Virus record (IMG/VR): IMGVR_UViG_3300042867_001113
DNA length: 64,000 nucleotides
Strand: one strand, 5' to 3'
Origin: a virus
Every line of letters begins with the position of its first letter. Position 1 is the first letter of the stretch. The translations under genes and the position numbers were made by a program. Below, piece after piece: positions 4,083 through 63,277 of this stretch. The notes beneath the pieces were generated by a model that saw only the letters and a list, made by a program, of their open reading frames with translations, searched no databases and was not told where the DNA came from.

Positions 4083-5153
4083 TCAGGTGGAGAGCAGGTC
4101 ACGCATGCGATCGGAGATCGAGGACTTCTCCTCGGTCTTACTCCCTGCAGCGCGAAGACCGATCCAGAACGCGAGCCGCTGAGGGTCGCGCACACCGGGC
4201 TTCTTCGCCAGCGTCTTGGCGAGCTTGTCGCGCTCTGGTGTTCTGGCAGTCGAAAAGGGGCCAACCTTCTTTGGAGGAGGCATCTTCGACTTCTTGACAG
4301 CTTTCACCTCAGAGATGCGCTTGTCGTTGCCCCGCACGCTGCCGTCGACACCGGCCATGCGGCGCATCTCAGCCGCGAACCAAGAACCGGGCTCCTTGGT
4401 CTCTTGCTTCAGTGCGGGAATCTGGGTGGAGACAACGACAAAGCCGCCTGCATCCATCTCAGCGGTGAAGGCTTCGGGACCATACAGTCCATCGAGAGTC
4501 TTCTGCACCGCCGAGAGCACCGGGTCAGCGTAGTCACGCAGCCAGTCGTCGGTCGACTTCGGAGCCACGCCTGCCCTGTCGCCTGCACCTGCGACGGGGA
4601 AACGCGTGCCGCTGACGACGAAGTCATCGTGAGAGCGCCGACCTTCGGGATCGAGCACGACGACCATGATGCCGTCCTCGTCTTGGCTCGTTGCCTCAAC
4701 GACGCCTGCGGGGGTCTTCAGACCGTCAAGAGCTTTGACCATACCGTCGAGCGACGGAGCCTCATCGTGAGATTCACCCATCGACACCGACTGGTCGAGC
4801 CAGTCGAAGATGCGGGCCGGGTCACCAAGCATCTCGTCGTCGAAGCCCATGCGGGGGCTGCTCTTGTAGAGCAGCTTGCCGTCCCGCCTGAACTCGCCGG
4901 TCACCGTGTAGAGACCCATCGCAGGGTTGAACTCAATGAACAGCTGAATGACCGGACCATTCTCTTCGCCAGATGCCGCCTTCTCAGGGACGAAGCGAGC
5001 AAGGAGACGAACAGTCCCCTTGATCTCGACAGGGTCCGCCAGACGCCACTCACGACCAAACACGTTGGAGAGGTACGACTCGTAGTCGGGAGCGTAGCGC
5101 GCCACGAGCCGCGCAGTGCCCAACTTTTCCAGAGTGTGTTGGTCGATGTACAT
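4083..5153 (-). CDS. hypothetical multidomain protein with MRRMAGV motif and DPQRLAFWIG domain
   Basis: 356 aa; motifs shared with neighbouring proteins. Confidence 0.65.
   Translation of the reverse strand: MYIDQHTLEKLGTARLVARYAPDYESYLSNVFGREWRLADPVEIKGTVRLLARFVPEKAASGEENGPVIQLFIEFNPAMGLYTVTGEFRRDGKLLYKSSPRMGFDDEMLGDPARIFDWLDQSVSMGESHDEAPSLDGMVKALDGLKTPAGVVEATSQDEDGIMVVVLDPEGRRSHDDFVVSGTRFPVAGAGDRAGVAPKSTDDWLRDYADPVLSAVQKTLDGLYGPEAFTAEMDAGGFVVVSTQIPALKQETKEPGSWFAAEMRRMAGVDGSVRGNDKRISEVKAVKKSKMPPPKKVGPFSTARTPERDKLAKTLAKKPGVRDPQRLAFWIGLRAAGSKTEEKSSISDRMRDLLST
4477..4490. promoter_or_regulatory. GGACCATAYGGNCC-like site (1 mismatch), within CDS
   Basis: GGACCATACAGTCC. Confidence 0.55.
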
Positions 5154-5220
5154 CCAGCCCTCATCTGCAGTTCAGACGACTGAACCTAGCAGATTTTCAC
5201 GAGCCGTCACGCGGAACGCG

Positions 5221-5625
5221 TCAATCGCCCGCCTGCTCCACAAACGGGGCGATGGTTTCGGCATCTGCAATCCCGATGATCTCGTCCGCTGCAATCCAGC
5301 CCACGAGGCTCTTGTCCTTCAGCTTGTAGGTCCAGCCGAAAGGCAGGCGGAAGAACAGGATGCGGTCCCCTTCTTTCAAAGGCGTCTTCGCGAGGGGCCC
5401 GACCGAGAGCACCGTGCCTGTGACAAGCACCTGCGAGCCGAGCCGCTGCCCGTAGGCGAAAGCGTGGTCAGGCGGGAGGTAGATGCCGCTCGCAGTCCGG
5501 TCAGGAAGCACGTCGGTACGCAGGAAAACTCGGGTGCCGATGGCGACGACACGGTGGCCCACCTCGTCCCAAGTCGCTTTGATGAATTCGGCAGTCGAGG
5601 TCGGGGCAGGCATCGTCTCAGTCAT
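5221..5625 (-). CDS. GroES-like co-chaperonin (functional analogue of T4 gp31)
   Basis: IGTRVFLR...RTASGIYLP...GTVLSVGP...LKEGDRILF...EIIGI; start MTETM with GAGGAG RBS. Confidence 0.85.
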   Translation of the reverse strand: MTETMPAPTSTAEFIKATWDEVGHRVVAIGTRVFLRTDVLPDRTASGIYLPPDHAFAYGQRLGSQVLVTGTVLSVGPLAKTPLKEGDRILFFRLPFGWTYKLKDKSLVGWIAADEIIGIADAETIAPFVEQAGD

Positions 5626-5633
5626 GTGTCTCC

Positions 5634-5966
5634 TCAAGTGGCCCGAGGGCCGTCCGTTTTCGTACCAGTAGCCCATCTATTGTCAGATCGGTAGGCATCT
5701 GCGCGAGCGGTCAGCGCGTCCATCGCAGCCTCGATCGTGATCAGCAGATCCTTGTTCCCCGGGAGTCCGGCGAGAAGGCGCTTCTGAGCCACGAGCAGGT
5801 CTGCCTGCGAGTTGTAGAAGGCCACCGGAGTCGTCAGGTGCCTCATGACTGAGGAAGCTGCATCGAAAACCGCGAAGGCGTTCCCCTTCAAGGCAACTGA
5901 GTCGACGCCGTCTGCGGGCACCTTCGCTGGAGGTGTCGATGTGCTCTTGAGGGCTTTCTTGGCCAC
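5634..5966 (-). CDS. hypothetical protein
   Basis: 110 aa, GTG start with AGGAGG RBS. Confidence 0.65.
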   Translation of the reverse strand: MAKKALKSTSTPPAKVPADGVDSVALKGNAFAVFDAASSVMRHLTTPVAFYNSQADLLVAQKRLLAGLPGNKDLLITIEAAMDALTARADAYRSDNRWATGTKTDGPRAT

Positions 5967-6006
5967 GCGGCCTCCTGTTGGAAGCTCAGTAACAGATCCC
6001 CCGCCT

Positions 6007-6849
6007 CTATTTCAGCTCGACGTCGATTTCGACGTAGTTCTTGTCGCCGACGCTTGCCCAGATCGTGGAGATGCTGTCCATGTGCCCTGCGAGCGCAGCC
6101 GTGACCTTCGCCCGCGCGTTCTTCAGCTCCTCGGAGACCTTCTCCTCGTAGTCGTAGTAGTTCATCCCGTCGTCGCCGTCCCCTTCGTCGTCGTAGTCGC
6201 TGGGATCCGACGGATGGTCTTTGGGGAGGTTCCACGTCCGGTAAGACGCCGTCATCGAGTTCCCGTGGATCTCAACGTCGTCGTCGCTGCCGCCATCACC
6301 GAGAGACTTGAGCGCCTTCAGGAGAAGGGGCTTGATCTTCGCAGCCACTGCGGCGCGCTTCGCTTCAGGATCTTCAGCGGGAGCCGCGACTGCGACCTTG
6401 GCCGGAGCCGGGACGGCCTGCTTCGCGGGAGGCGCAGGCAGGGCAGGCTTCGGAGCAGGCATGGCCAGCATGTGGCCGACCGACACCTTCGCGTCGGGGT
6501 GCTTGTCGAACACCGAGGCGGTCTTCTTGAGAGCAGCCTTCGCCCTCGCAGTGGCCGTCATCGCACTTGCAGGGGCTGGGATGGGCGCTGGCGGCGTTGC
6601 AAGGACCGAGGCCCCCTGCGGGGCGGTAGAGGGATTCTTCGGCCTTGCCGTGGGCTTCCCCGCCGGGACAGTCCCGAGCGTCGCCTTCAGATCCTTGGTG
6701 ATCCGAACCCAGCCCTTCTCGGTCTTGATCCAGTCCCCGTCCTTACGGGAGTTGACCGTCCCCACAGGCTGAATCGCGTCGAGAACGACGTCGGGATATC
6801 GGGAGGACACCCCCGCGAGCGCAAGCAGCTTTTCGAGATCGGTCGACAT
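6007..6849 (-). CDS. putative internal protein (LLALAGV N-term motif, RKDG.W motif, Pro/Ala/Lys linker)
   Basis: 280 aa ORF. Confidence 0.65.
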   Translation of the reverse strand: MSTDLEKLLALAGVSSRYPDVVLDAIQPVGTVNSRKDGDWIKTEKGWVRITKDLKATLGTVPAGKPTARPKNPSTAPQGASVLATPPAPIPAPASAMTATARAKAALKKTASVFDKHPDAKVSVGHMLAMPAPKPALPAPPAKQAVPAPAKVAVAAPAEDPEAKRAAVAAKIKPLLLKALKSLGDGGSDDDVEIHGNSMTASYRTWNLPKDHPSDPSDYDDEGDGDDGMNYYDYEEKVSEELKNARAKVTAALAGHMDSISTIWASVGDKNYVEIDVELK

Positions 6850-6852
6850 GGT

Positions 6853-7131
6853 TCAGCCCTTCTTGGCAGCAGCCATACCGGCAGCGTAGGCGTCTTGGAG
6901 GGCGGACTCAATGCTCCACACAGCGACCTCTTTGAAGTCGAGGCGGTCGGACTTGCGGGTGGCGAGAGTCTCGACGTCGAAGTGCTTCTGGGCGATCTTG
7001 AGGAGGAGGGCAGGCGGGGCCATCGCTTCGGAGATCGCAGGCCCCTCGGACTGCAGCTTCTCTTGTGTCCACCCGTCACGGACGGACTCAATTCCAGCGA
7101 GGCGGCGAAGGGTGGTCATGCGGTCGGTCAT
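6853..7131 (-). CDS. small protein, DUF6900-like domain with N-terminal LRRLAGI motif
   Basis: IAQKHFDVETLATRKSDRLDFKEVAVWSIESALQDAYAAG. Confidence 0.65.
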   Translation of the reverse strand: MTDRMTTLRRLAGIESVRDGWTQEKLQSEGPAISEAMAPPALLLKIAQKHFDVETLATRKSDRLDFKEVAVWSIESALQDAYAAGMAAAKKG

Positions 7132-7138
7132 GGGAACC

Positions 7139-7402
7139 TCAGTGGGACGGAAGGGTCGTAACCCAGATGCGAAGCTTGTTCGGGATCTCTTTGGGCTTCA
7201 AGTCGTGGATCGGGAAAGCGTCTTTGCCTGACCAACCGTGTCTGTTCACATGAACGAGTCCGCCGGACACTGAGAAAACTACACCGACCAAGGTGGGGTT
7301 GGCCCGGTCGACCACCTTGTCCCCGGGTCGGGGGACGTCGTCCGAGAGGAACACGCGGGCCGGGGGAACTGCCGATGTTCGACGTCGGCAGTTGCAGCCC
7401 AT
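7139..7402 (-). CDS. small SH3/KOW-like beta protein
   Basis: PGDKVVDR...GVVFSV...VHV pattern. Confidence 0.5.
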   Translation of the reverse strand: MGCNCRRRTSAVPPARVFLSDDVPRPGDKVVDRANPTLVGVVFSVSGGLVHVNRHGWSGKDAFPIHDLKPKEIPNKLRIWVTTLPSH

Positions 7403-7403
7403 G

Positions 7404-8081: not shown

Positions 8082-8090
8082 AGCAGGCTC

Positions 8091-8366
8091 CTACTTGAGA
8101 TGTTCGATCAGGTTGTCGAGCTGCTCGACGAGGTAGTCGAGGTCGCCCGGGTAGCCGAAGCTGAGAGGCTTCTTGGCCTGCTCCAGCGCGTGCTTGCCGA
8201 GGAGAGCTTCAATCTCCCGCAGACGCTTATCGACGACGATCCGCTTCGCAGCGTAGGCGTCCGAGGCAGACATCTTGCCCTTTGGGACGGGGCTCGGAGT
8301 GACGCTCTTTGCGATGGCGCTGCCGCTGGCTTCAAGCACCTTGTTCATACGGTCGGCGACAGACAC
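8091..8366 (-). CDS. hypothetical protein
   Basis: 91 aa, GTG start with GAGGT RBS. Confidence 0.6.
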   Translation of the reverse strand: MSVADRMNKVLEASGSAIAKSVTPSPVPKGKMSASDAYAAKRIVVDKRLREIEALLGKHALEQAKKPLSFGYPGDLDYLVEQLDNLIEHLK

Positions 8367-8421
8367 AGAGAACCTCGTGAGGGTAGCCTAGCTGGTTTTT
8401 GCAGGACTCAAAATATAAACA

Positions 8422-8435
8422 GGACCATATGGGCC
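8422..8435. promoter_or_regulatory. GGACCATAYGGNCC site, intergenic
   Basis: GGACCATATGGGCC next to an AT-rich promoter-like stretch. Confidence 0.75.
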
Positions 8436-8438
8436 CAG

Positions 8439-8618
8439 TCAGTCCTCCAACAAGCAGTCGGTCCTCGTGCAAGTGACTGAGTCAGGTGGTTTTTGCACAT
8501 CGATGGTGAGAAAAGTGTCCATCGTCGGGGTACGGACGATCTCGTAAATGATGTCGACGGACCCTGTCGTCGACACCTCAGGCTGTATGTAGAGGTCGGA
8601 CTTCGTGGATGACTTCAC
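8439..8618 (-). CDS. small hypothetical protein (59 aa), absent from the ORF track
   Basis: GTG overlaps the Nudix TGA (GTGA); open to TGA at 8439-8441. Confidence 0.45.
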   Translation of the reverse strand: MKSSTKSDLYIQPEVSTTGSVDIIYEIVRTPTMDTFLTIDVQKPPDSVTCTRTDCLLED

Positions 8619-12267: not shown

Positions 12268-12690
12268 CTATGGGAGATATTTTGGTTCTACCACCCCAGC
12301 ATCCCACGAAACAGAGTCAAAACGAAAAGCGCCGACCACTCGACGCTCGAAGCTGGAGTCTCGCACCAGCACCCCTCGGATGTCCCCACTCATGTCTGGG
12401 TTCCGCAGCAAGACGTTCGAGACGACGCCGGATGGCTGAAGAACGAGAACTGCGTAGGTGTTGGGGGCAGCGGCTTTGCGCAGGTTGGCCTTGGCGAGCA
12501 AGGCGCCAGACGGGGCCAGCAGCGCACACAGCGCAGGCCACGTGAGCGAGAGAGGCTCAGCGTCCTTCTTCGGGACCAACCAACCATCTCGAATTTTGCA
12601 AGGCGTGAGCAGAAAACTGGCCACGGTCCTCCTCAGAGACTGAAAATCCGGGCCGAACCACTTGGTCCGCCCGGAATTCCGTCGGGACAC
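12268..12690 (-). CDS. hypothetical protein
   Basis: 140 aa ORF filling the gap. Confidence 0.4.
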   Translation of the reverse strand: MSRRNSGRTKWFGPDFQSLRRTVASFLLTPCKIRDGWLVPKKDAEPLSLTWPALCALLAPSGALLAKANLRKAAAPNTYAVLVLQPSGVVSNVLLRNPDMSGDIRGVLVRDSSFERRVVGAFRFDSVSWDAGVVEPKYLP

Positions 12691-12704: not shown

Positions 12705-13031
12705 TCAGAGAGAGGCGCCAAGTTCGTCTTCGGCGTCGGTGCTCTCGGCGTCGGCGACGAAGGCGAGGCTGATCTCACCGGCTTGGACCATACGGGCCCA
12801 TTCGTCGGCGGGGATCATGGGCTGCTGCATCTGCACGCGGACATTGAAGTCGCGGGCATGGACGGCGAGGGTGCGCGAGGCGGCAACAGCGAGGGGGCCG
12901 TTCGCCTCGAAGGGGTGCGGGAGACCGTCGATGAGGTCGCCGCCGACGGCATCGGGGGACACGCCACCGCCGCCAACGACGGGGCGGTTCAGGATCTTGG
13001 TCGAGAGATTCGCGACAGTGAGCAAAGCCAT
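12705..13031 (-). CDS. putative virion protein
   Basis: Start MALLT at 13031 with GGAGG RBS. Confidence 0.6.
   Translation of the reverse strand: MALLTVANLSTKILNRPVVGGGGVSPDAVGGDLIDGLPHPFEANGPLAVAASRTLAVHARDFNVRVQMQQPMIPADEWARMVQAGEISLAFVADAESTDAEDELGASL
12785..12798. promoter_or_regulatory. GGACCATAYGGNCC site, within CDS
   Basis: GGACCATACGGGCC. Confidence 0.7.
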
Positions 13032-13119
13032 TGATGCCTCCAGTTGAACAGGTGCGGGCCCGGAAGCCCCTAGCCTAGATGGCAGGAGCATCGGGCGTCA
13101 AACAGGTTCCCGCAAGGGC

Positions 13120-19246: not shown

Positions 19247-19260
19247 GGTCCGTATGGTCC
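19247..19260. promoter_or_regulatory. GGACCATAYGGNCC site, intergenic
   Basis: Minus strand GGACCATACGGACC. Confidence 0.75.
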
Positions 19261-24037: not shown

Positions 24038-24421
24038 CTACGGGGCGGCTGTCGGAATGGCGACCGGGAAAGAGCCCGTCGTCCCTGTGGCGACCACTGT
24101 GTACTCGATCAGGATGGTCACGGAGGTGTCATCGCGAGTGAAAGAGATGTTGTCGAGCCGAGCCCGTGGCTCCCACCGAGCAATCGTCGTTGAAATTTCA
24201 GACCTGATAATCTGCGTCAGGATGTCATCGTTGTTCTCGAAGACGTACTGCTGGACGTCGCACCCAAACTGAGGACGCATCGGGCGTTCACCTCGTTGGG
24301 TCTGCAGAATCTGCTGCAGAGACATCCGGACAAGGTCGTCATCAACGGTGCCTGCTGGCACACTCTGAGAGCCCTTCTGGAAGGGAAATGCTACGCCTCG
24401 GTAGAATGCCGTCAGGGCCAT
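24038..24421 (-). CDS. baseplate gp25/GPW-like sheath initiator
   Basis: IL.TQRGERPMRPQFGC...I..WEPR. Confidence 0.9.
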   Translation of the reverse strand: MALTAFYRGVAFPFQKGSQSVPAGTVDDDLVRMSLQQILQTQRGERPMRPQFGCDVQQYVFENNDDILTQIIRSEISTTIARWEPRARLDNISFTRDDTSVTILIEYTVVATGTTGSFPVAIPTAAP

Positions 24422-24428
24422 ATGGTCC
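24415..24428. promoter_or_regulatory. GGACCATAYGGNCC site overlapping the gp25-like start codon
   Basis: Minus strand GGACCAT-ATG-GCCC. Confidence 0.75.
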
Positions 24429-31145: not shown

Positions 31146-31897
31146 CCGGGCTGACCCAAGTCCAGCTCGCTCTTGTACTCGTGGTTGCAGACAGGACACT
31201 GCATGTCCATCTCCGTGTCGACGCCGCCGTCTTGGCTCTCCAGCATGGACCGAAGCCCCTGCCGGTCGCGGAACGACAGACCCTTGATGTCGGACATCGT
31301 CGGCGTCTTCCCGTCAAGCAGCTCGATGCGAGCGAGCAGCATGGCAGACGGCTTCTCGTCGTCCGAGACCTTGTTGGCGCGTTCCTCATCAGCACCTGTC
31401 CCGAGACGGTGACGAACCTTCCGGCCCGAGGGGAGCACGTCATCGAACACGCGCACCATCGGGTTGGTCATCTTCTGGACGGTGAGATCGCTGAGATCGA
31501 GGATGTAGTTGCCCTTGCTCTTGCACTCCGGACAGACCTCCTCGACGGGAAAGGCATCTCCCAAAGAAGTGCGGCGGAGGGCGAGCAGGAGGAAGATGCG
31601 GTCGCCGGTCGGGAGGTGCGAGATGATGCTGGAGAAGTGCCCCCGGTCCGTGATGGTGCCGATGCGCTCCAAGCAGGCCGACAGCAGCATCCCGAGCTTC
31701 TTCTGCACGCCGAGCTTCGGAGTGGCGAGGAGGTCTTCTTCTCGCCCCGTCATTTCACGCAAGTGAACCTCGGTGTGAAGCACTCCAAGGTTGTCGATGT
31801 AGCCACACGGCAGCTCGAAGACGCCGTTCGTCGGCTTCGGGGTGTCGAGCAGGTTCTGGTTGATGTTCTCTGAAAAAGTCGGTGCCTTGTCGCTCAT
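31091..31897 (-). CDS. tail assembly chaperone / hub assembly protein with two CxxC zinc ribbons
   Basis: LREMTGREEDLL, CPEC, CPVC, ends in GFFF; upstream of the tape measure gene. Confidence 0.8.
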   Translation of the reverse strand: MSDKAPTFSENINQNLLDTPKPTNGVFELPCGYIDNLGVLHTEVHLREMTGREEDLLATPKLGVQKKLGMLLSACLERIGTITDRGHFSSIISHLPTGDRIFLLLALRRTSLGDAFPVEEVCPECKSKGNYILDLSDLTVQKMTNPMVRVFDDVLPSGRKVRHRLGTGADEERANKVSDDEKPSAMLLARIELLDGKTPTMSDIKGLSFRDRQGLRSMLESQDGGVDTEMDMQCPVCNHEYKSELDLGQPGFFFPGRVQKDSKTKSST

Positions 31898-32502
31898 GTC
31901 TTGTTCCTTCCAGCTGCGTCCACCAGCGGTGAGGCTTCCGCCTCGTACATGCAGAAAAGGGCTTTGAGAGCCGTCGTCACGGTCATCCCTTGCCCGTCCA
32001 CGATCGTCTTGAAGGTTGAGTAGAGGTCCGACTCCACCCAGATGTTCAAACGAACATCTGAGCCCGCGTCTTGGTAGGACGCAAGGTCGTCGAACCGAGC
32101 TTGGTCGGCGACATAGCGGCCCATCATGTAGCGCACCAAAGCGCCCATGCTGCTCGTGTGGCCGACGTCCCTTCGCTCCTGCAGCTTCTTGTAGAGCCGG
32201 TCAGAGACCCAGATGTTCACGAGCCGCTTGCCCTGCTCCGCGACCTTCTTCGGAGAGACGCTGGAAGCCAGCTCACACGCTCGGCAGAGGAGCACGGAGT
32301 TCGCGAGGAGCAGTTTTCCGCCAGCCTCCTCTGGAACGATGAGCCTGGGCTTCAGCTTGTGCTCGCCGCCGCAGTTCGCGCACTTGCCGTGAGCCGCTTC
32401 GTAGACGAGTTGGGCCCACATCGGGCGGTCCACTTGGAGGTCTTCCGAGTCCGTCACAGTTACACCCATTGGGACCATATGGCCCACGTCCGCGTTGAGC
32501 AT
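31894..32502 (-). CDS. degenerate HNH zinc domain fused to two RHH-like DNA-binding repeats
   Basis: CANCG...PRLIVP...GG...N...LCRAC lacks the catalytic His; repeats RLVNIWVSDRLY and VRLNIWVESDLY. Confidence 0.65.
   Translation of the reverse strand: MLNADVGHMVPMGVTVTDSEDLQVDRPMWAQLVYEAAHGKCANCGGEHKLKPRLIVPEEAGGKLLLANSVLLCRACELASSVSPKKVAEQGKRLVNIWVSDRLYKKLQERRDVGHTSSMGALVRYMMGRYVADQARFDDLASYQDAGSDVRLNIWVESDLYSTFKTIVDGQGMTVTTALKALFCMYEAEASPLVDAAGRNKT
32472..32485. promoter_or_regulatory. GGACCATAYGGNCC site in the 5' end of the HNH-RHH gene
   Basis: GGACCATATGGCCC. Confidence 0.75.
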
Positions 32503-35432: not shown

Positions 35433-35470
35433 AGAGAGAAACACCAACGGGACCATATGGCCCCGTTGGC
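35433..35470 (-). terminator. hairpin/terminator after the sheath gene, with the GGACCATATGGCCC motif (35450-35463) at its centre
   Basis: CCAACGGG-GCCATATGGT-CCCGTTGG followed by TGTTTCTCT. Confidence 0.65.
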
Positions 35471-42006: not shown

Positions 42007-42020
42007 GGACCATATGGACC
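42007..42020. promoter_or_regulatory. GGACCATAYGGNCC site between the endonuclease stop and the gp14 RBS
   Basis: GGACCATATGGACC. Confidence 0.75.
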
Positions 42021-50078: not shown

Positions 50079-51875
50079 TCAGCGCGCCCCTCGGGCGTTG
50101 AGATCTCGGAGCAGACCGCCAATTTCGCGCAAGCGCAACTCCAAGCCTCGGTCGGACTTCAGGATGGCGTCGAGCTTGGCGTCCATACGTTTCGAGTCCT
50201 TCGGGTTGTAGCCCTCGGTCAGCTCTCGTTCGGAGAAGCCACTGTGCGTCGGGATCCCGCGACGACGAGCCGCGTCACGCGAGCTTGTAAGAGCCTTCAG
50301 CACTCGGTTCGGCTGGTGAGCCTCTGCTGGAGGACCATACGGGCCCTCTTCGGGGGGCGCTTCGCCCGGAGGAGCCTCCATCGGGGGAGGCGCGGGCGAT
50401 ACGATGTTCTGCGCAGCTGCTTGGTTTTCAGCGTCCTCAGCTGACTCCCCACTGCGCTGCTTCTTGATGAGGGCAATCTCGTCTTCGGACAAGCCAAAGA
50501 CGTTCGAGAGGATCCACTGTAGCGAGACAAAGTCGCGCATGCGTGCCGCAAGGTCCGCTTTGGCCGTTCGGACTTCCATCTGAGCCAGCTCAAAAATGGC
50601 CGACGGCACCGTCATGTTGATGTCGTAGTCGACAGCGTAGGGGTCGAGGCCCAGCGCCGACAAGTGGACACGGGCGACCTTCCGGAGTCCATTCTTCAGC
50701 TCCCGCTGGATACGCAGAACGGTCCGAGCAAAGCGGACGTCCTCACTGGACAGGACCGCCCGAGCTACGCCGGATTCCTGCCCGAGGTACGCCTTTGGCA
50801 CCTTGATGGCCGAAAACAGCTTGTCTCGGAAGTACTCGATGTCGTCCATTGCCTGCCACTGCGGAGCGCCGAGGGTCTCGATGCGAGTGGAGTCCACCCC
50901 CTTCCGGGTGGGCACGAAGAAGTCCTCGTCCTGCGACAGAGCGTCGAACTTCAGATTCAGCTTGCCGGTGCCCGGGTCCACGAACCGCTTCTTCCGGAAG
51001 TTCTGGCGGACCCGGTTCACGAACGCGAGGGCCTCTTGGGGAGGAAGGTCGCCGACGTCGACATAGAAGGCGAACCGCTCAGGGGCCCGCTGGAGGCGGT
51101 ACACGAGGGCCGCGTCTTCCAGCAGCATGAGACGCTTCCAGATCCACCGGGCGGCTTCCAAGGCACTGTGGCCGTAGACCGACCGGCGTTCCTTCCCGCG
51201 CAGGCGGAAATGGACCACCTCCCAGCTCTCAAACGCAGCCACTGGCTGACTCGTGGGGTCCGGGCTCACCGACATGTCGAACTTCGCAGACAGAGACCGC
51301 TGGAAGTCGTTGTTGGTGAAGTCGAAGCGCCCCTTGAAGTCCTGCATGAAGCCGATCAGGTCACCCTTCGGCGTCTCAAGGCGTCGGACCGTCGGCGGAG
51401 GCAAGTAGTTGATGCCTCGCACGCCGTCAGCATTGACGAGAAGCTCCTCGTAGTCGTTCCCGTATTTGCAGAGGGTGCGTGCAATTTCCCAGATCTCTTC
51501 GTCCATGCGAAGTGTTCGATTGAACAAGTCATCGAGGTTGTTCTGAAGCGTTTTGTCGGACGACGTGATCCAGATGGTCCGGTGCAGCACGGAGTCAGGT
51601 TGGGTCGCATCGTCCGCGAGGATGTCGAGGGCAGTGGCGATCTCGCCGTAGTCGTCCATCTCCTCGTAGTCCGCGAACCGAAGCAAGAGGTCAGTGTCGA
51701 GGCGAAGATAGTCGGTGAGGGCGTCGTAGCCCACGCCCGACATCAGGTCGATGGCTGTGGCGTCGCCACCGCCCAACTCGCCCGTCGCACCCTTCGCGAG
51801 CTGAGTGTTCGCGTGGTCCTTGTCGCGGCTGAACGCTGCGGAAATTCGCTTGGCGACGTTGTCGGCGAATCCCAT
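50079..51875 (-). CDS. portal protein (T4 gp20 family)
   Basis: EI..ALD, LLEDAALVYR..RAPER..FYVDVG.LP, EDFFVP.R, I.TL, DIEYF..KL..A.KVP. Confidence 0.95.
   Translation of the reverse strand: MGFADNVAKRISAAFSRDKDHANTQLAKGATGELGGGDATAIDLMSGVGYDALTDYLRLDTDLLLRFADYEEMDDYGEIATALDILADDATQPDSVLHRTIWITSSDKTLQNNLDDLFNRTLRMDEEIWEIARTLCKYGNDYEELLVNADGVRGINYLPPPTVRRLETPKGDLIGFMQDFKGRFDFTNNDFQRSLSAKFDMSVSPDPTSQPVAAFESWEVVHFRLRGKERRSVYGHSALEAARWIWKRLMLLEDAALVYRLQRAPERFAFYVDVGDLPPQEALAFVNRVRQNFRKKRFVDPGTGKLNLKFDALSQDEDFFVPTRKGVDSTRIETLGAPQWQAMDDIEYFRDKLFSAIKVPKAYLGQESGVARAVLSSEDVRFARTVLRIQRELKNGLRKVARVHLSALGLDPYAVDYDINMTVPSAIFELAQMEVRTAKADLAARMRDFVSLQWILSNVFGLSEDEIALIKKQRSGESAEDAENQAAAQNIVSPAPPPMEAPPGEAPPEEGPYGPPAEAHQPNRVLKALTSSRDAARRRGIPTHSGFSERELTEGYNPKDSKRMDAKLDAILKSDRGLELRLREIGGLLRDLNARGAR
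50332..50345. promoter_or_regulatory. GGACCATAYGGNCC site in the portal C-terminal coding region
   Basis: GGACCATACGGGCC. Confidence 0.7.
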
Positions 51876-54291: not shown

Positions 54292-55050
54292 TCAGTCCTT
54301 CGACGTGTCTGGCATGTCGATGAGATCACCTGCGGTGGCGTTGGACAGGTCGTCCATCTCCCCCGCAAATTCAGGGTTGCGGTCAGATCGTTCCGCGATG
54401 GAGAGCAGCCGCTCGGCGATGGCGAGCACCTTGCGACGGGACTCGGAGCTGTCGAGCACCTTGACCACGCCGGGGTTGTCGGCGTAGCGGGTGGCGACGT
54501 CAGCCATGAGGGTCGCGTCGACGCTCACGGTCCCTAGTTTTCGGTCGTTGATGCCGAGGTCCATCTTCAGTTGGGCAGCAGACGCAAGAATCTCCCGAGC
54601 GGTCCGGATTTCTTGCGTCATCGACGGCAGCAGCTTCTTGATGTTCTGTTCGGTCTTGAAGTCGATGGCGACGCGATCCATCTGGATCTTGTAGAGGCGA
54701 TGCATCTCGTCCAGCTCGTTGAGCCCTGCCTTCACCTCTGCGACCGACTTCTCGAAGACGACATTCAGGGGCCCCGCGCGCTGGGTCGCCGGGATGGACA
54801 TCCGGTACTCCGTGAGGAGGTTGACCAGCGAAGCCGGGGTCATGTTGGTCATCTCGTTACGTTCGTCCTGCACCCACGCAGCCACAATCCGTCCCGAAAC
54901 ACCCTCTTCCACCAGCTTCTTGTGTAGCTCCTTGAAGCACTTGAGGTTCCGCAGCGACGCGAAGTTCGTCGAGCGGCTCACGGGGCGGATCCGACCGCCC
55001 TTCTTCGGCAGAGCGCTCTTTGGCGCCGCGTCCTTTTTGGGTTCGCTCAT
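54292..55050 (-). CDS. putative terminase small subunit
   Basis: Helical, HTH-like N-term, directly upstream of terL. Confidence 0.5.
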   Translation of the reverse strand: MSEPKKDAAPKSALPKKGGRIRPVSRSTNFASLRNLKCFKELHKKLVEEGVSGRIVAAWVQDERNEMTNMTPASLVNLLTEYRMSIPATQRAGPLNVVFEKSVAEVKAGLNELDEMHRLYKIQMDRVAIDFKTEQNIKKLLPSMTQEIRTAREILASAAQLKMDLGINDRKLGTVSVDATLMADVATRYADNPGVVKVLDSSESRRKVLAIAERLLSIAERSDRNPEFAGEMDDLSNATAGDLIDMPDTSKD

Positions 55051-55099: not shown

Positions 55100-56938
55100 C
55101 TATTTGCTTGCCCACGATTGGCCCCCGCCGACTTCCGCGCGGGTTGGAACGGACGGGAGCATTGGGGCGATGCCTTCGATCATACCGTCGTGCAGCTCCT
55201 GCCGAACGTGAATTTCCAGCTCAGGATCCTCGTCGTGTTCGCAGACAATCTCGTCGTGGACCATATGGACCGGCGCGCACTTCGCTCCCTTGCCGAGAAG
55301 GGGCGTTCGGCCCGCGAGCTTCTTCAGACGGTCGTAGACGTTGCGGATGGCGACCTTGAGGCCGTCGGCCCCAGTGCCTTGGATGGGGCTGTTGTAGAAC
55401 TCGTTGTGCGCCTTCTCATCCTTGATGATGCGTCGGCGACCCCAAGCCGTCCGGGTCTCGCGCTGACGCTTCCCTGAGTCCATCGCCAGCCGATGCCACG
55501 AGTCGATCCCCGCATATGCCTCGAAGAAGCGTCGGCGGAACGTGCGGGCTTGGTTCTCCGTGAACGACACCCCGTAGCCCTGCTTCGCGTACATCACGAG
55601 GCGCGCGGCCTGCATCCCGTAGATGAAGCCGAAGTTGACCGGCTTGGCCTGCTGGCGTTCTGCCTTCACGATCTCCGACTCAGGCTTGCCGGTCACGAGT
55701 GACGCCGTCGCGTAGTGAGCATCGCGGTCGTCTCGGAACACCTTGATGAGCACCGGATCCTTGGAGATCTCGGCAACTATTCGCATCTCGATGTTGCTCC
55801 AATCGCAGATGGCCAAGGTTCTACCGGGCTCGGCCCTGAAGCAGTCTCGAAAGGCACCCCCGCGAGGTACCTGCTGAAGGTTCGGTCCTCGGTTCGCGTA
55901 CCGTCCGGTGTCGGTGAACGGAAAGTACGACGAGTGGATGCGCCCCGAAATCGGGTGGATGTTCTTCAGGTACTCCTCGCCGAACGCCTTCACCGACTGC
56001 GCATACCCTCGGTACTCGATGAACTCCTTGAGGATGGGCCAGCGGTCAGCCTCCATCGCCAGCGTCATCTCCTTGGTGTCCATGAGGGGGACCGTCTTTG
56101 TCAGCCCGGTCTCCGGGTCTTTCCACTTCTGCTTGACACCCAGCATGCAGAGTGACTTGAGAATCTGATCGGGAGAGTCGAGGTTGAAGCTGGCAGGTCC
56201 GAAGAGGCCCAGCTGGTTCGAGGGGTTCGGCAGCTTGGACAGCAGGCTTGCCCGCAGCCGCTCCAGCTGAACCCGGTCCGACGCCGTTCGCGTGAGCCAC
56301 ATATCTTTGTTGAGGAAGAACCCGTTCAGTTCCATGCACGCTTCGGGGAGAACCGCGTTGAACTCCAGCTGCGCGATCTTCACCAGACGCGCATCGACGA
56401 TCTTCTTCTTGAGGACGTCGCGGAGCCGGGGAAGCTTGTCGATGTCGTCTGCGGCGTAGTCGAGCTGCCGCTGTGTCAGCGTCCCATCCCAGTCGGAACC
56501 GCCGAGGTCTTCGACCGTCGCGGCTTCGCCCAGCTCGCGCTTGTAGAGGCTCCACAGGTCATGCTTTAGCCCGGGGAGGCCCGCGTAGATGATGCTCGAC
56601 GCGCGGAAGGTGTCGAACAGCTTCCCAATCTCCAGATCGAAGTGCCAGAGCAGCCACTTCTGGTCGAACTTCATGTTCTGACCGACCGTAACGCCCTTGG
56701 TCCGCCTGAAGGCGTCCACAACGGGCCCCAGCGTCTTCGTCTTGTAGAGGTCGATGATGTAGAGGCCCTGCCCGGTGTTGACCGAGCAAAGGCGCGGACG
56801 GCCCGTCAGAGGGTCGAAGCTGCCGCCACCCCCGATCTTCGCCGTCTCAAGGTCGAGCCCGATGACATCGGCACTCTCAATTTCACGAGCAATAGCGGCG
56901 AGCAAATGCTCATCAGTGACGACGGTGTACGGGCGCAA
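55100..56938 (-). CDS. polA: family A DNA polymerase with 3'-5' exonuclease
   Basis: DLET, N.KFD, YAADD; PNLQQVP; motif A DWSNIEMR, motif B RQQAKPVNFGFIYG, motif C VHDE. Confidence 0.96.
   Translation of the reverse strand: MRPYTVVTDEHLLAAIAREIESADVIGLDLETAKIGGGGSFDPLTGRPRLCSVNTGQGLYIIDLYKTKTLGPVVDAFRRTKGVTVGQNMKFDQKWLLWHFDLEIGKLFDTFRASSIIYAGLPGLKHDLWSLYKRELGEAATVEDLGGSDWDGTLTQRQLDYAADDIDKLPRLRDVLKKKIVDARLVKIAQLEFNAVLPEACMELNGFFLNKDMWLTRTASDRVQLERLRASLLSKLPNPSNQLGLFGPASFNLDSPDQILKSLCMLGVKQKWKDPETGLTKTVPLMDTKEMTLAMEADRWPILKEFIEYRGYAQSVKAFGEEYLKNIHPISGRIHSSYFPFTDTGRYANRGPNLQQVPRGGAFRDCFRAEPGRTLAICDWSNIEMRIVAEISKDPVLIKVFRDDRDAHYATASLVTGKPESEIVKAERQQAKPVNFGFIYGMQAARLVMYAKQGYGVSFTENQARTFRRRFFEAYAGIDSWHRLAMDSGKRQRETRTAWGRRRIIKDEKAHNEFYNSPIQGTGADGLKVAIRNVYDRLKKLAGRTPLLGKGAKCAPVHMVHDEIVCEHDEDPELEIHVRQELHDGMIEGIAPMLPSVPTRAEVGGGQSWASK
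55258..55271. promoter_or_regulatory. GGACCATAYGGNCC site within polA near motif C
   Basis: GGACCATATGGACC. Confidence 0.7.
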
Positions 56939-56995: not shown

Positions 56996-58438
56996 TTATC
57001 CCTGCTTTGACTCAGGGACAGCATCGATACCCGGGTCTTCAGTTCCTTCACCCGGCTTGAACGTCGGAGCCGTCTTTGCCAGCTGTTCAGCCTCCCACTT
57101 GGTCGCTGCAGCGTAGAGCGCGAGTAGATCCTCGGCGGTCATCGGCTTCTTCATCGACTCCTCCATCCAGTTCGGGTTGCCGACCGTGTCGTCCCCCGCC
57201 TGAGCAAACATCTGCTTCGGAGCAGTCGGATCCGTCACGTCAACAACAATAGCCGATGAGGCTTCAGGGGCCAGTTCAGCGAACGACGCAGGCAGCTTGA
57301 TGCGGGCGGCTGGGAAGATTTCCGGTTTCACGAAGCGTCCGAAGCGCACCCCTCGGTCTTCGGCCCTGATCCGGACCGCATCCAAGCCTGTCATCTCATC
57401 GGTGTCGCGAACATGGGCGAGAACGAGCTTGACGTCGTAGCCCTTCGATCGAGCCTCCTTGATGACCCCTTTGTAGTAGGCCGTCGACGTCCCCACGCCG
57501 TCAAGCAGGAAGGGGTAGTACTCCCCGGGGCTATCAGGGTCTTCCGACATCGCGAGGTCAATGGCAGTGTCGTTGAGGTTCGATACCTCGCTGTGCGTGA
57601 TGATGGCACCGTTGCGGGACTTCGTCGCCACCGCCGCTTGGTACTCCGGCAGCTTGGTGCGGTGCGCGTCTGCGTCGAGCACGGCCAGTTCGTCAGGGTT
57701 CTCCGCGAGGTAGCGCGCCAACGTGCTCTTTCCGCTGGCAGGGAGGCCCATCGTGATGATGGCTATAGGATTCCGCACACGCCTCTTCCCTTGGAAGATG
57801 CCGTCCAGAATCGTCTTGTGCAGACGCTGGCGCTCTGAAGTCAGGACTCCGTCCGGCGTGGTGTGCGCCTTGAGCGTGTCCGTCGGCAGGTCGGGGTTCG
57901 CGTCAGCCCACTCGGCGCCGCTGGTGAGGTGGAACCACGATCCGTTCGGCATCTTCTTGAACCAAGCGTCCCGCGAGGCCCAGTAGTGAACCGTCCCGAC
58001 AGACGCTTCCTGTCCTCGGGCTTCAAGGACAGCAAGGAATCGGTCGACGTCTTCGGTCTTCTTTGCAGGGTCGTACCTATCCTCGTACCACTCAGGAACA
58101 ACCGTCTGGTGCAGCAGCAGGTACACGTCCCCAGCAGTCTGCACGGAGGGTGCGATCTCCGACGGGACGTCAAACCAGTCCGCGTTCTCGCGGACGTGCT
58201 TCGGGCTGATCGGCCTGAACCGGACCTCATCTCCCGTGTACTCCCACCGAGCACGGACAACGCCGCCACCCTCGTCCACCATGTTTGACAGCTGCATCTC
58301 GAACACAGGCTTCGGAAGATCGGGGTGTGTGTAGAAGACCCAGCGTCCGTCCTCCAGCATCGCAGGAGCGCGAAATAGCGAACCATCAATGTCCGGATTG
58401 GCGCTCTCGACGCCGTAGACGCCTGTAAAACTCAGCAC
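56996..58438 (-). CDS. zeta-toxin-family P-loop kinase with N-terminal extension
   Basis: MGLPASGKST, LDAD.HR..LPEY, HSE.S, LLDG, GY.V.L, R...GRFV.PE. Confidence 0.8.
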   Translation of the reverse strand: MLSFTGVYGVESANPDIDGSLFRAPAMLEDGRWVFYTHPDLPKPVFEMQLSNMVDEGGGVVRARWEYTGDEVRFRPISPKHVRENADWFDVPSEIAPSVQTAGDVYLLLHQTVVPEWYEDRYDPAKKTEDVDRFLAVLEARGQEASVGTVHYWASRDAWFKKMPNGSWFHLTSGAEWADANPDLPTDTLKAHTTPDGVLTSERQRLHKTILDGIFQGKRRVRNPIAIITMGLPASGKSTLARYLAENPDELAVLDADAHRTKLPEYQAAVATKSRNGAIITHSEVSNLNDTAIDLAMSEDPDSPGEYYPFLLDGVGTSTAYYKGVIKEARSKGYDVKLVLAHVRDTDEMTGLDAVRIRAEDRGVRFGRFVKPEIFPAARIKLPASFAELAPEASSAIVVDVTDPTAPKQMFAQAGDDTVGNPNWMEESMKKPMTAEDLLALYAAATKWEAEQLAKTAPTFKPGEGTEDPGIDAVPESKQG

Positions 58439-58439: not shown

Positions 58440-61400
58440 TCAGTACCCCGCCGGTTTCAGCTGTTTGTCATAGAAGCCACTCGACTCGGTGACGACGAGG
58501 TCTTCGATGGGCATCCCATTGAAGACGGTGATCCCAGCCTCCTTCAACGCAGAAATGACCTCCTGACGTCTCGCAGCGGTTTGCGTTCTCACCTTGAGGA
58601 TCTTGTTGGGGGACCACCCCTGCTTGAACACGACTTCGGCGCGAGAAGCAAATCCGGGCGAGTCGACCGTTTGTCGGGTCGTGAACGCGGGGCTGTGGAC
58701 GTTGCCGTAAGGGTCGCCAGAGTTTCCGGTGAAGATGTCCAGTCGGTCCAGCTCAGAGGGGTCTGCGATGATCTCGATGTCCCCCCATCCGTTCGCCTGC
58801 GTGCCGCTGTTCGCCAACGACTTGGTCACTGGCTTGACGAACAGGTAGTCACCACCGCCGCTGTTCTGATCGGGAGCGTTGTCAGCCGAGGTAGATGTCC
58901 CCTTCGGTTGGAGTCCCGTGTCTTGCCGCCCCATGATGCCGGTCGGCCCTGTGCGGAGCATCTTCACGACGTTCGCCGGGCTGCTGATCGCGTGCGACAT
59001 ATATGCGAAGTCCGGATTGGCTGCTCTGATCCGCGCCAAGCGACCCGGAAGAACAGGCACCGCCGCTCCGAAACCGACCTTCTCCATGCGGATCGAGTTC
59101 ATCTCAGCATCGGAGTACCCGAGCTTCTTGAGTCGATCCGTCAGTATCGCCGAGGTTCGCTGGCTCTCCGGAAGGGCGTCGGCTGCCTGTGGTGCAGCCA
59201 TCCAATAGAGAGCCGACAGCTTCATCGTCTTCTCTTCCTCAGGGGTCGGAGCCTTGAGCACTTTCGACGAAAGGTTGGGCCCGGCCTTGTCCAAGAGCTT
59301 GGCGAAGGCGTCATTCGGGTCTTCACCCGGCTTCGGATACACGTCCGCCCACACGCGGTTCTTCACAGCCCATCGAGGTTCCGACGGTGACCCCATGTGC
59401 ATGATGTTGTTGCCGTCCGTCCACTTCAGGGAGGTGATCTTGTCAGTTTTCCCTTCCGGCCCACCCTTGTGCTCAAGGGAGTCTGTTGCGGCGCTGTAAG
59501 CCGTGCGCTGGTGATTGAACACCGACGGGGCGCCGTCCTTCACGAGAGCGTTGGCCCCTTCGGTGAAGGATTTGCGGAACTTGAAGACGTACCTGTAGAA
59601 GGTCTTGCCCTTCGCGTCGGTCTGACGCTGCACCATGATGGTCTGACCCTCCACAGAGGGACCGTCCGCGATGACGGGTTGTCCGTAGGCGAGCGGCTCC
59701 TTGCGGAAGTCGACGTCGAGGATGTTCCGGTCGAGCACAGCGTTCTTGAGCTGTCCGGCCTTCGGGATGGTCTTCAGGCCTTGGACCTCAGGAGCAGCAG
59801 GGATCGGCTCTTGGAATCCGATCTGCGCGTCTGAACCCTTGGCCTTGGCCCAATCATCTTTGGGGAGGAAAACGACCACCTTCCCGTCTTTGCTGACGGG
59901 CTTCTTCGCCAGAGTGACGCCTGCCTGCTTGAATGACTCCTCGACCTTCTCGACCGTCACGTCTTGCATCTTGATGACGGTGAAGTCGGAGAACGTGTCG
60001 GGCGACCCGTCGGTGACTTTCGGGGGCTTCTCCTTGTAGAAATTCGGACTGCCAGTGCCGAAGAAGGCGGACGCCTTCGACACATTCCACTGGAAGCCGG
60101 GCGCAGGTGCAGCGAATCCCGGCGGGGTGGGCGTTGCTTTGACAGTCGGTGGGGGCGTCGTTTGGGAGACCGTCTCCACACCCACAGCGCCCAATATCCC
60201 CGTCTGCAGAGGGTTGACGACTTCGATCGGCTTCGCTCCCTGCACGACGGCAGGAGGTGGAGGAGTCTTCTTCGGTTCAGCGCCAGCCTCTGACCACCCA
60301 CCTGCAAACGTGAAGGTGCCCTTCTTCTTCGTTCGCTTCGCGTAGAGCCCGCCGATGAACGACTCGAAGTCCTTGCGGATGTTCTGCTTGCGCGCGAGCG
60401 CACGGTCGAGGAACTCCGCGACCTTCTTCGGGTCGTCTTTGAACTTGGCCTCGCTGGCAAACTTTGAGAGAAGTTGCGTGTAGTCACTGTCGCTGATGGC
60501 TTCGATGCGCTCGATCGCACCAGTCATCTCCTTCGGATCGAAGGACATCGAGCCGTCAGCGAACGCCTTCCAAAACTTGTTGTAGTAGGGTTCGTTTTCG
60601 ACTTTGTTCGGGTGGTAGTCGATCGCGAGCTTGTCACCGTCAACCGAATCGGTGGTGCCCGGCAGCATGAACTTGAAGCCCTGCTCCTTGTCGACGGAAA
60701 GCAGAGCCCCGTCCGGGCGACGGACAAAGTTTGCCGCATGCGTGTCGTGCTGCGACATCAACCAGTCGAGAGCGTGCTCCTCAGCGACGTCCTTCCGCTC
60801 ACTGTCCGTCAGAAGCGAAGGGTTCGTCCCTGCAGCGCCGAGAGGCGTGGCACCTGCCATCCAAGGCTGGATCGAGGCAGGGATGCCTTTGTAGCCTTCG
60901 GGGACATTGCCCACAGGAATAGACTTCCCGGGCCGAACGACGCTGGAGACCTGAGAGAACATCTCCTGCGCTGCGATGCGGAAAGGCTCGATCTTCGCCT
61001 TGTTCTTCGACCGGGCCAACTTGACGAGGTACTTCCCGTCCGGACCTGCGAAGAAGAACTTCTCTCCTGCTCCGCCGATACCCGAAGCGGCGCCCTCTGG
61101 AACGAGGGAGCTGATGGACGGCAGTTGTGGCGGCGACAAAACGCTGCCCATGGGCGGGACCGAAAGGCCCCCGAGGTCTTTCTTTTTCTTCTTCGCGACC
61201 TTCGTGGCGAGGGAGTCCTTGCCCGCCTCGAACTCGAACGTGTCGGTCATACCGATGTCACCGCGCTCTTGGTACACGCCGGTGATGAAGGCTTCCAAGT
61301 CCTTCCTGACGTTCTTCTTGCGCTTGAGGATCTCGTCCTTGAGCGTGGTCAGCTCCTTTGCAGAGCCACCCTTGGCGCCGAGGTAGGATCCGAGGTTTGC

Positions 61401-63236
61401 GAGCCAAGCATCATCAGAGATGTCTTCGATCTTCTCGATCGCAGGAAGCATGTCGCCGATCGGAAGGTCGATCTTCTTCTTCTTGAAGAGGTCAAACAGC
61501 GTCCCGTAGATCAAAGGTGACGGGTTCGGCTTGTACGACGTGTCGAGACTGTCCTTGCCAATGAACTTGAGGGACTGATCCTTGTCAATGCCGACGACGT
61601 TCCCGTCGGTCGTGAGCAGGAAGTTCCCCGCCTTCGCGTCGTGGCTGGCGAGAGCCCAATCGAGAACGCGCTCTTGCATCAGGCGAGCGAGCTGTGGGTG
61701 GGTCAACGCGGTCAGGTCGACCTTGCTGAGATCGGTCTTGATGTTCGGGACCATCGGCTGGATAGACCCGGTGCCGACGCCGCTCACGTTCCCGACAACG
61801 ACAGGAACGGCGTTCTCTGCCCCGAAGACCTTGGCAGCGATGTTCGCGTAGGCAGCAGCGGCGAGCGCAGGAGCATCCGCGCCGGGTTTGAAGAGGAAGG
61901 TGTTTCCTGCTGCATCTTTGACGAACTGCTTTGGATGCGCTCCACCCAACGAAGCCTTCGCGTCACCTGCCGAGGAAAGCGTCGCCAACGGAGGGATCGC
62001 AGGCAAGCCCAGACCTCCCGAGGTGATGGGAGCCGTTGGGGTTGCGGTTGGCGTCGGTGAGGCGGGAGCAGGCGAGTCGTACTCGAACGGAGCCGTCGAG
62101 GGCCCCTTGAAAGGGCGGACCACCTTGAACGATTGTCCTACGAGGGCCGAAGTATCGGCAGCGTGAATGCCGTTGAACCACCATTTTCCGCCACTCTTCA
62201 CGAATGTGACCCCTTTGGGGTTCTGAATCGTGATGGCTTCCGGTTGGTTGTTCAGAGCAGCAAGGTCGAGGACCGAGAAGCCGGGTGGTACGATCGCTGC
62301 CGGAGTCGGGGGCGCTGGGGTCGAGGTGACCGGGGGCGGCGGAACCGAAGTCACAGGGGGAGTCGGGGCCGGAACAAGCATCGGCGATGTAGCCATCGGC
62401 TTGAACTTCACGGTGACAATGCCGTCGTCGTCCTCGTCCGCTGTGGCGAGCCCTGCCTTCTTAGCGAGGGCGATGACCTTCTCGAAAGTCAGGTAGTTTT
62501 TGTCGAAGACCTCCTCAGACGCATCTTCGCCGTTCACCTCCGCCACAGCGTCAATCATGTTCCCGAACTCATGCAGCGCAGCCAGTGCCTTGAACTCTTC
62601 CGACCCGGTGGAGAAATTGAGGATCTTCGCCGCGTTCGCGACTTCCGATTTGACGGTGACCACACCCGGAACAGCAAAGCCCAGTGCAGCGGCTTTCTCT
62701 TTCCAGTTTGCGCCGTAGACCTTCAGCAGCGTCGCGGTTACCTGCGGGTTCTTCAGCAGCTTGAGGTCGGTCGCCGGGTCTTGGTTGAACTGGACCGCGT
62801 GGAGGTAGGCATCCAACGGGACAGAGGCGGTGCCGCCGAGTGCAGCCTGCACGTCTGCCTTCGTGACGGGCGTCGGAGCCGACTTCGGGGGGTGCAGTAG
62901 CTCCGTGTCATCCGACGCACCGTCCTTCGTCAGCACGTCCTTCAGGGTTTTGTTTGCGTCCTTCAGGACGAGATCGGTCGCAGCCTTGTAGTGCTTCGGA
63001 ATCGTGCCGATGACTGTGTTGGCCAGCGGGGTTCCGGGCTCAGGATCCACGAGGTCAAAGATGTGCTTCGGGACATTTGGGTGCTTGATATGAACGGGAA
63101 CGAGGCCGAGGCTCTTGTTCCCGTCCTTGTACTTGAAGGCGTAGAGGTACGTCGGCGTAATTCGGAACGCAGAGGCTTCTGCCAGAGCGATGGCTTCAAG
63201 CAGCGACGTCGCCTGCTTCGGACTGGAGTCGGTCAT
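58440..63236 (-). CDS. large polyvalent protein: two PI3/4-kinase/HipA-like domains plus a C-terminal ART-like domain
   Basis: GGAHPK..FK...DW..ASHDAKAGN...IDK; GGAGEK..VK...DW..SQHDTHAAN...VDK; SH..SPAN..ML..G...DYLF...RAEVVF. Confidence 0.75.
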   Translation of the reverse strand: MTDSSPKQATSLLEAIALAEASAFRITPTYLYAFKYKDGNKSLGLVPVHIKHPNVPKHIFDLVDPEPGTPLANTVIGTIPKHYKAATDLVLKDANKTLKDVLTKDGASDDTELLHPPKSAPTPVTKADVQAALGGTASVPLDAYLHAVQFNQDPATDLKLLKNPQVTATLLKVYGANWKEKAAALGFAVPGVVTVKSEVANAAKILNFSTGSEEFKALAALHEFGNMIDAVAEVNGEDASEEVFDKNYLTFEKVIALAKKAGLATADEDDDGIVTVKFKPMATSPMLVPAPTPPVTSVPPPPVTSTPAPPTPAAIVPPGFSVLDLAALNNQPEAITIQNPKGVTFVKSGGKWWFNGIHAADTSALVGQSFKVVRPFKGPSTAPFEYDSPAPASPTPTATPTAPITSGGLGLPAIPPLATLSSAGDAKASLGGAHPKQFVKDAAGNTFLFKPGADAPALAAAAYANIAAKVFGAENAVPVVVGNVSGVGTGSIQPMVPNIKTDLSKVDLTALTHPQLARLMQERVLDWALASHDAKAGNFLLTTDGNVVGIDKDQSLKFIGKDSLDTSYKPNPSPLIYGTLFDLFKKKKIDLPIGDMLPAIEKIEDISDDAWLANLGSYLGAKGGSAKELTTLKDEILKRKKNVRKDLEAFITGVYQERGDIGMTDTFEFEAGKDSLATKVAKKKKKDLGGLSVPPMGSVLSPPQLPSISSLVPEGAASGIGGAGEKFFFAGPDGKYLVKLARSKNKAKIEPFRIAAQEMFSQVSSVVRPGKSIPVGNVPEGYKGIPASIQPWMAGATPLGAAGTNPSLLTDSERKDVAEEHALDWLMSQHDTHAANFVRRPDGALLSVDKEQGFKFMLPGTTDSVDGDKLAIDYHPNKVENEPYYNKFWKAFADGSMSFDPKEMTGAIERIEAISDSDYTQLLSKFASEAKFKDDPKKVAEFLDRALARKQNIRKDFESFIGGLYAKRTKKKGTFTFAGGWSEAGAEPKKTPPPPAVVQGAKPIEVVNPLQTGILGAVGVETVSQTTPPPTVKATPTPPGFAAPAPGFQWNVSKASAFFGTGSPNFYKEKPPKVTDGSPDTFSDFTVIKMQDVTVEKVEESFKQAGVTLAKKPVSKDGKVVVFLPKDDWAKAKGSDAQIGFQEPIPAAPEVQGLKTIPKAGQLKNAVLDRNILDVDFRKEPLAYGQPVIADGPSVEGQTIMVQRQTDAKGKTFYRYVFKFRKSFTEGANALVKDGAPSVFNHQRTAYSAATDSLEHKGGPEGKTDKITSLKWTDGNNIMHMGSPSEPRWAVKNRVWADVYPKPGEDPNDAFAKLLDKAGPNLSSKVLKAPTPEEEKTMKLSALYWMAAPQAADALPESQRTSAILTDRLKKLGYSDAEMNSIRMEKVGFGAAVPVLPGRLARIRAANPDFAYMSHAISSPANVVKMLRTGPTGIMGRQDTGLQPKGTSTSADNAPDQNSGGGDYLFVKPVTKSLANSGTQANGWGDIEIIADPSELDRLDIFTGNSGDPYGNVHSPAFTTRQTVDSPGFASRAEVVFKQGWSPNKILKVRTQTAARRQEVISALKEAGITVFNGMPIEDLVVTESSGFYDKQLKPAGY

Positions 63237-63263
63237 GCGGGCCTCAGACGAACGTGGTGAGCG

Positions 63264-63277
63264 GAACCGTATGGTCC
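63264..63277. promoter_or_regulatory. GGACCATAYGGNCC-like site (1 mismatch), intergenic upstream of the kinase-ART gene
   Basis: Minus strand GGACCATACGGTTC. Confidence 0.65.

Follow-up and report, generated by a model that had tools for sequence, protein, structure and literature searches.

The sites of ParABS systems (parS, sopC) and of the Noc-NBS system share one build, a 14–16-bp palindrome with a central pyrimidine–purine step and one better half-site. On plasmid RK2, the OB operators of KorB are dispersed over the replicon (PMC3597684), and KorB represses from distal sites (PMC11790492). Stoperators of Cluster A mycobacteriophages are asymmetric and are bound by a monomeric repressor (PMC9283540). 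Phage ParB proteins without a helix-turn-helix (HTH) are known as activators of thymine dioxygenases with nucleotide-binding and dimerization domains and no obvious DNA-binding domain (PMC13229309). Here, we describe a lattice of 14-bp near-palindromes, GGACCATAYGGNCC, in a 64,000-nt stretch of the virus record IMGVR_UViG_3300042867_001113. This whole stretch is referred to as the window, and the rest of the genome was represented by IMG/VR relatives (G and L numbers). The window represents the late region in the genome of a large, uncultured myovirus and encodes a T4-like portal, protease, capsid and sheath as well as a PolA. Its closest cultured capsid proteins are about 31% identical, and the DNA comes mostly from lake-water metagenomes. 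Judging from the sequences of the window and its relatives, the 14-mer is, on balance, probably the docking site of a phage DUF3102-like protein (hereafter the reader), with the lattice marking or organizing the whole phage chromosome.

An initial annotation of the window had listed nine exact and two one-mismatch copies of the near-palindrome at intervals of about 3.0–8.3 kb. Every copy was found at its place and on its strand (Table 1), and the measured gaps were 2978–8325 bp. The word gave 17 strand matches against 0.07 expected, and none of 100 shuffles gave more than one. A blind palindrome search of the window ranked the same word first, with 11 sites where an order-4 Markov model predicts 0.19 (corrected P about 1e-11). 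The gaps had a coefficient of variation (CV) of 0.32 and were more even than random placement (P = 2e-4), at a mean density of about one site per 6 kb. Orientation was 8:3 in a region whose genes lie on one strand, and flanks were unrelated from copy to copy. The reported split between six copies that are intergenic or at a gene start (8422, 19247, 24415, 35450, 42007 and 63264) and five inside coding sequences (CDSs) was found again on re-checking. Coding had been said not to account for the latter. As a group, they exceeded a codon-resampled null, a check of the kind that the annotation had proposed (five against a mean of 0.6; P = 0.002), but the polA copy is partly explained by protein coding; it sits on a conserved HMVHDE stretch, and many relatives that lack this motif still have 10–12 of its 14 bases there. 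The annotation had also described an invariant left arm, a variable right arm and no perfect palindrome among the exact copies. Across 55 partly overlapping site records from five clade genomes, one arm was indeed near-invariant and position 12 was free, whereas the perfect palindrome is allowed and occurs once in the relative G008.

Conservation in relatives, another proposed check, was borne out in G001 (91.5 kb, 89% identical to the window), which carries 16 sites. Nine of ten alignable sites were retained with two changes, both at free position 12, and no non-free position of these nine had changed against a background divergence of 11%. The tenth site (12785) was lost in G001 by synonymous changes and replaced 130 bp away, at 12655, where G001 has a good site that is decayed in the window. 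In more distant clade members, the sites lay elsewhere, and one had been gained in the portal tail together with amino-acid changes. Because sites turn over and move among clade members, density and spacing are conserved more than position. In G001 and G006, sites continued through the replication genes as densely as in the late region. Other words formed lattices elsewhere, with 11 identical copies of another 14-bp palindrome of the same build in G002 and arms of the CGACC, CGTCC, TCCAA, CGCAA and TGCAA types in other relatives. Spacing was significantly even in the window and G001, and the gap CV was below 1 in 19 of 20 records (one of the 20 being a motif of a different kind, in G021).

The candidate reader is a predicted HTH protein encoded just beyond the end of the window. 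Its gene is a core gene, two genes upstream of a gene for a ParB-fold protein (P0001), and is present in nearly all records spanning its region. The reader sequence follows the pattern of a ParB-type DNA-binding domain, from which we infer a ParB-type HTH fold. No PDB sequence match was found for the family, a profile comparison with one canonical ParB gave no match, and a literature search, with subscription journals mostly outside its reach, found no function for DUF3102. In the window's clade, the predicted recognition helix reads HYKKAQR. A covariation scan covered 18 core proteins, column by column, in 22 taxa. Among 3134 columns compared with site base 1, helix position 3 scored best; a K or Q there was paired with G in 15 of 15 cases and an R with C in 7 of 7. 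For base 3, the top column among 1762 was helix position 1 (H vs. Q), where Q occurred only with T. On a tree built without the helix, base 1 changed five times and base 3 three times, and the independent pairs (three for each base) were concordant in all six cases. Residue–base rules written down beforehand held in L307, L301/L304, L085 and L287, which were among the 22 scanned taxa, and in three cultured phages. The annotation had proposed that the copies are binding sites of a phage protein; this is supported because the sites are conserved, turn over and covary with reader helix residues, and the reader very likely binds them directly. A broad split of motifs into CC and other types was rejected as a reader-specific signal; it is confounded by phylogeny, with helicase and RecA columns scoring highest.

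Reader homologues occur in the cultured phages RcZahn, HJ05, LV6 and DLP5. Those of RcZahn, HJ05 and DLP5 have Tyr at helix position 7, and their genomes carry non-CC lattices of the TGCAA type, as predicted, with 19 sites in RcZahn, 24 in HJ05 (CV 0.44, P = 1e-4) and 20 in half of the DLP5 genome (CV 0.49, P = 3e-4). KellEzio has a full homologue of P0001, but its whole genome gave no reader match, and a blind search of 50 kb of it detected no lattice. In HJ05, both reader and lattice are present, and the only ParB_N domains are distant ones. By this comparison (one genome each way), the lattice goes with the reader and not with this ParB family. Gene 1 of RcZahn is a full ParB homologue. DLP5 is temperate, persists as a phagemid and has heavily modified DNA (PMC5834331), a lifestyle that would fit either a holding or segregating use of the lattice or a self-marking one.

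Table 1. Sites of the 14-bp lattice and associated genes (window coordinates unless G001 is named; window 64000 = G001 57500).
Feature	Coordinates	Strand	Remarks
Site, one mismatch	4477..4490	+	Inside CDS 4083-5153; region unaligned in G001
Site	8422..8435	+	Intergenic; retained in G001 although flanks diverged
Decayed site, 3 mismatches to perfect palindrome	12655..12668	+	Same place in G001 is a good site, 1 mismatch
Site	12785..12798	+	Inside CDS 12705-13091; lost in G001, compensated at 12655
Site	19247..19260	-	Intergenic
Site	24415..24428	-	Overlaps ATG of 24038-24421
HNH-like domain and tandem RHH-like repeats	31894..32502	-	Rival reader, judged unlikely
Site	32472..32485	+	Codons 6-10 of HNH-RHH gene; retained in G001 and G004
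Site	35450..35463	+	Intergenic; loop at centre of hairpin following tail sheath gene
Site	42007..42020	+	Adjoins next gene's ribosome-binding site; relatives put true start just downstream
Site	50332..50345	+	Variable C-terminal tail of portal; gain/loss among relatives with amino-acid changes
Site	55258..55271	+	In polA; conserved protein stretch pre-encodes most bases
Site, one mismatch	63264..63277	-	Intergenic
P0001, ParB-CTPase-fold protein	G001 57602-58411	-	About 0.1-0.9 kb past window end; RHH-like C-terminus but no detected HTH; may partner the reader
Candidate reader, 353-aa DUF3102-like predicted HTH protein	G001 58639-59700 (L052:8712-9770)	-	About 1.1-2.2 kb past window end

Several points weigh against a chromosome-wide lattice bound by the reader. 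The reader gene lies outside the window and is known only from relatives that are 82–93% identical over the adjoining DNA. Matches to DUF3102 (PF11300) were weak (4 of 30 reader members, best 8.7e-5), and the HTH is assigned from the sequence pattern, these matches and sub-threshold Atlas leads. The three independent pairs per trait give P = 0.25 each; pooling them is generous, and the two sets share taxa. Traits were called with the helix already seen, some of them from one to five sites, and the base-1 rule did not hold in L308 or G010, neither of which was among the scanned taxa. Spacing was not significantly even in several records. G003, G009, G027, G029, G030 and G032, one of them a complete genome, have the reader without a detectable lattice, and the window's clade has no site near the start of the reader gene. 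Blind motif searches in 20-kb loci had too little power. In G009 (L156–L157), a close relative with a ParB 81% identical, the reader helix has lost two clade-typical residues and no site was found in 25 kb; a loss or a switch of the lattice system is possible there.

Other proteins were weighed as readers. P0001 itself might read the sites as a one-protein clamp of the parS/KorB type, which seems quite improbable. It is a syntenic core gene, and in both sequence and fold it comes closest to Noc, ParB and KorB (PF02195, E 2e-12; Noc, E 1e-11; KorB, Z 11.5, rmsd 1.9 over 91 residues). The ParB-CTPase fold keeps Box II (GGEHR) and the Box III asparagine, with His replacing the first Arg of Box II; nucleotide specificity is not predictable from sequence (PMC12704722). 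Its middle domain can be superposed on KorB and Spo0J over no more than the initial 45 residues (94–138), as far as the first HTH helix (Z 4.7), and in a more distant ParB_N group a palindrome covers the start of the gene. However, none of 121 family members had a Pfam HTH, a fold search of the middle domain gave no clear match, and the best P0001 columns scored lower than those of its DUF3102-like neighbour. The middle helix was rejected as a specificity determinant when the rule derived from it failed out of sample on G021 and G023. The cultured phages also argue against P0001, with the family present without a lattice in KellEzio and the reverse in HJ05, and HTH-less phage ParBs are known as enzyme activators (PMC13229309). 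Among the binders named in the initial annotation, the protein at 31894–32502, with an HNH-like domain and tandem ribbon-helix-helix (RHH)-like repeats, was a poor fit, and we consider it very improbable that it binds the sites and autoregulates. A site does occupy its own codons 6–10 in the window, G001 and G004, and a single-chain tandem RHH would match an asymmetric site, but five more distant homologues have no site at the start, the strand residues are nearly unchanged while motifs differ, and G033, G036, G039, RcZahn and HJ05, all with strong lattices, lack the full-length gene. Another named candidate, 282–647, had no Pfam match. A MerR-like gene of some relatives was discarded as reader, being absent from that place in the window's clade. 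That a host protein reads the sites, or that they form an uptake or anti-restriction signal without a phage reader, is similarly far-fetched, since the motif bases track residues of a phage protein and a single motif class, in step with the phage helix, is common to phages of Rhodobacter, Aeromonas and Stenotrophomonas. An explanation by chance, codon bias or a functionless mobile repeat, to which the largely protein-encoded polA copy would lend some colour, has a negligible probability and is refuted by enrichment and turnover; the unrelated flanks also speak against it.

A different role for the same reader was also considered, namely global control of transcription, as a KorB-like long-range repressor or through stoperator-like roadblocks on phage genes. 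We regard this as rather unlikely. Four of the 11 window sites are fully intergenic (P = 0.009, given 8% non-coding DNA) and two touch translation starts, while RcZahn, HJ05 and DLP5 each have a site 78–145 bp upstream of the reader gene. Distal OB sites allow KorB to repress at a distance (PMC11790492), and the temperate lifestyle of DLP5 (PMC5834331) would also suit a repressor. On the other side, a test of sites at gene starts in the large myoviruses found no gene family with a recurrent site across lineages and no autoregulated gene. A tyrosine integrase was found in only 1 of 20 records, most of them partial, a result that would still allow plasmid-type lysogeny, and the sites are near-palindromic and in both orientations, in contrast to asymmetric stoperators (PMC9283540). 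Even spacing and local compensation fit coverage better than promoter control. The annotation had offered two roles for the sites. Stoperator-like repression of the late region is not favoured, given that sites run through the replication genes, lie in both orientations and recur at no gene start, and genome organization of the parS, matS or Noc kind is favoured because spacing is even across the family. If the reader binds the sites, a positional rather than a promoter-control role is likely.

In the mechanism we propose for a reader-bound lattice, a reader dimer would bind each site through one perfect and one relaxed half-site, and selection would maintain about one site per 6 kb wherever sequence permits. 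At this density, no part of the chromosome would be farther than about 4 kb from a site. Bound reader would mark and organize the whole chromosome, with copies being held, segregated or recognized as self in the host; this purpose is one that we infer from comparative sequence data. The reader may also load the neighbouring HTH-less ParB-fold clamp in trans. In most large myoviruses, no more than 1 kb separates the P0001 gene from the reader gene; elsewhere in the family, its neighbour is either a putative small terminase gene or a glycosyltransferase gene. A partnership between P0001 and the reader is tentatively suggested. A search with HTH_ParB found separate canonical ParBs in only 3–4 of 29 records. 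A more speculative possibility is a split ParB system, in which a stand-alone HTH protein would read a lineage-specific even lattice and load an HTH-less ParB clamp in trans, which would coat the whole chromosome and label it as self, to serve segregation, DNA modification or packaging, with a residue-to-base code readable from sequence. In many relatives, the ParB gene abuts the putative small terminase gene.

A large phage that lacks ParA, integrase and a known nucleus still has to organize its DNA and distinguish it from that of the host. If correct, the lattice would represent a general, undescribed way of organizing DNA, common to large myoviruses and cultured 80–100 kb phages of three host genera; no published description of it was found in a search that mostly did not reach subscription journals. 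It would also assign a testable function to an unannotated core gene, with two concrete specificity predictions and with DLP5, HJ05 and RcZahn as cultured models.

Additional features were observed around these genes and in the relatives. Two genes conserved in the clade lie between ParB and polA, encoding a 1598-aa protein without a PHROG match (window 58440–63236) and its kinase/ATPase-like neighbour (56996–58438). A conserved 252-aa gene upstream of TerL (54292–55050) is a putative small terminase; in many relatives, as in DLP5 and RcZahn, its homologue comes immediately after the ParB gene. Seven relatives conserve the HNH-like protein with two RHH-like repeats in their tail region; in more distant genomes, nothing beyond single small RHH-like proteins was found. 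An extra canonical ParB with an HTH lies <2 kb from the reader gene in L270 (G036) and L271 (G030). G002 (L036–L042) has a second, non-palindromic 12-mer in 11 copies, possibly a promoter element. G006 and G021 each have 6–7 copies of extra short palindromes centred on AATT, distinct from the lattice and possibly operators of another regulator; in G021 they are far from the ParB gene. In a distant ParB_N group (L059–L061, L123, L124, L129, L131, L132 and L135), an 18-bp TAAGT-N8-ACTTA palindrome is dispersed, with one copy over the parB start.

The lattice shares features with several known systems. ParABS and Noc sites have the same build, and ParB Box II and the Box III asparagine are conserved in P0001. 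Here, however, sites are genome-wide and unclustered, and reader and CTPase domain are separate genes. ParA (PF13614) was absent from 47 of 50 records, most of them partial, with none in the window's clade or in the complete G029 and G039. Because ParA and a site cluster are lacking, the lattice falls outside ParABS. Like stoperators, it consists of many short sites for one phage protein across the genome, with lineage-dependent specificity, but its sites are near-palindromic, 8:3 in orientation and often inside genes, and because they are not asymmetric it is not a stoperator system. P0001 resembles the ParB activators of thymine dioxygenases in having no obvious DNA-binding domain, and its homologues in DLP5, RcZahn and KellEzio adjoin glycosyltransferase genes; no PF00534 glycosyltransferase was found in the partial genomes of the window's clade, and the accessible part of PMC13229309 mentions no site lattice or separate reader. 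Borrelia ParZ offers a further likeness as a possibly phage-derived, non-ParB centromere-binding protein (bioRxiv 10.1101/2022.07.05.498848). By analogy, the lattice would work most like KorB-OB or dispersed parS. As with KorB-OB, short palindromes are dispersed over the whole replicon and a ParB-CTPase-fold protein is encoded nearby. KorB has its own HTH, whereas the lattice is probably read by a separate DUF3102-like protein and no HTH was detected in the ParB-fold protein; the setting is a large myovirus, with sites spaced evenly and not tied to gene starts. What is new here is a named candidate reader, with residue-level covariation between its predicted helix and the sites and with a positive and a negative test in cultured phages.

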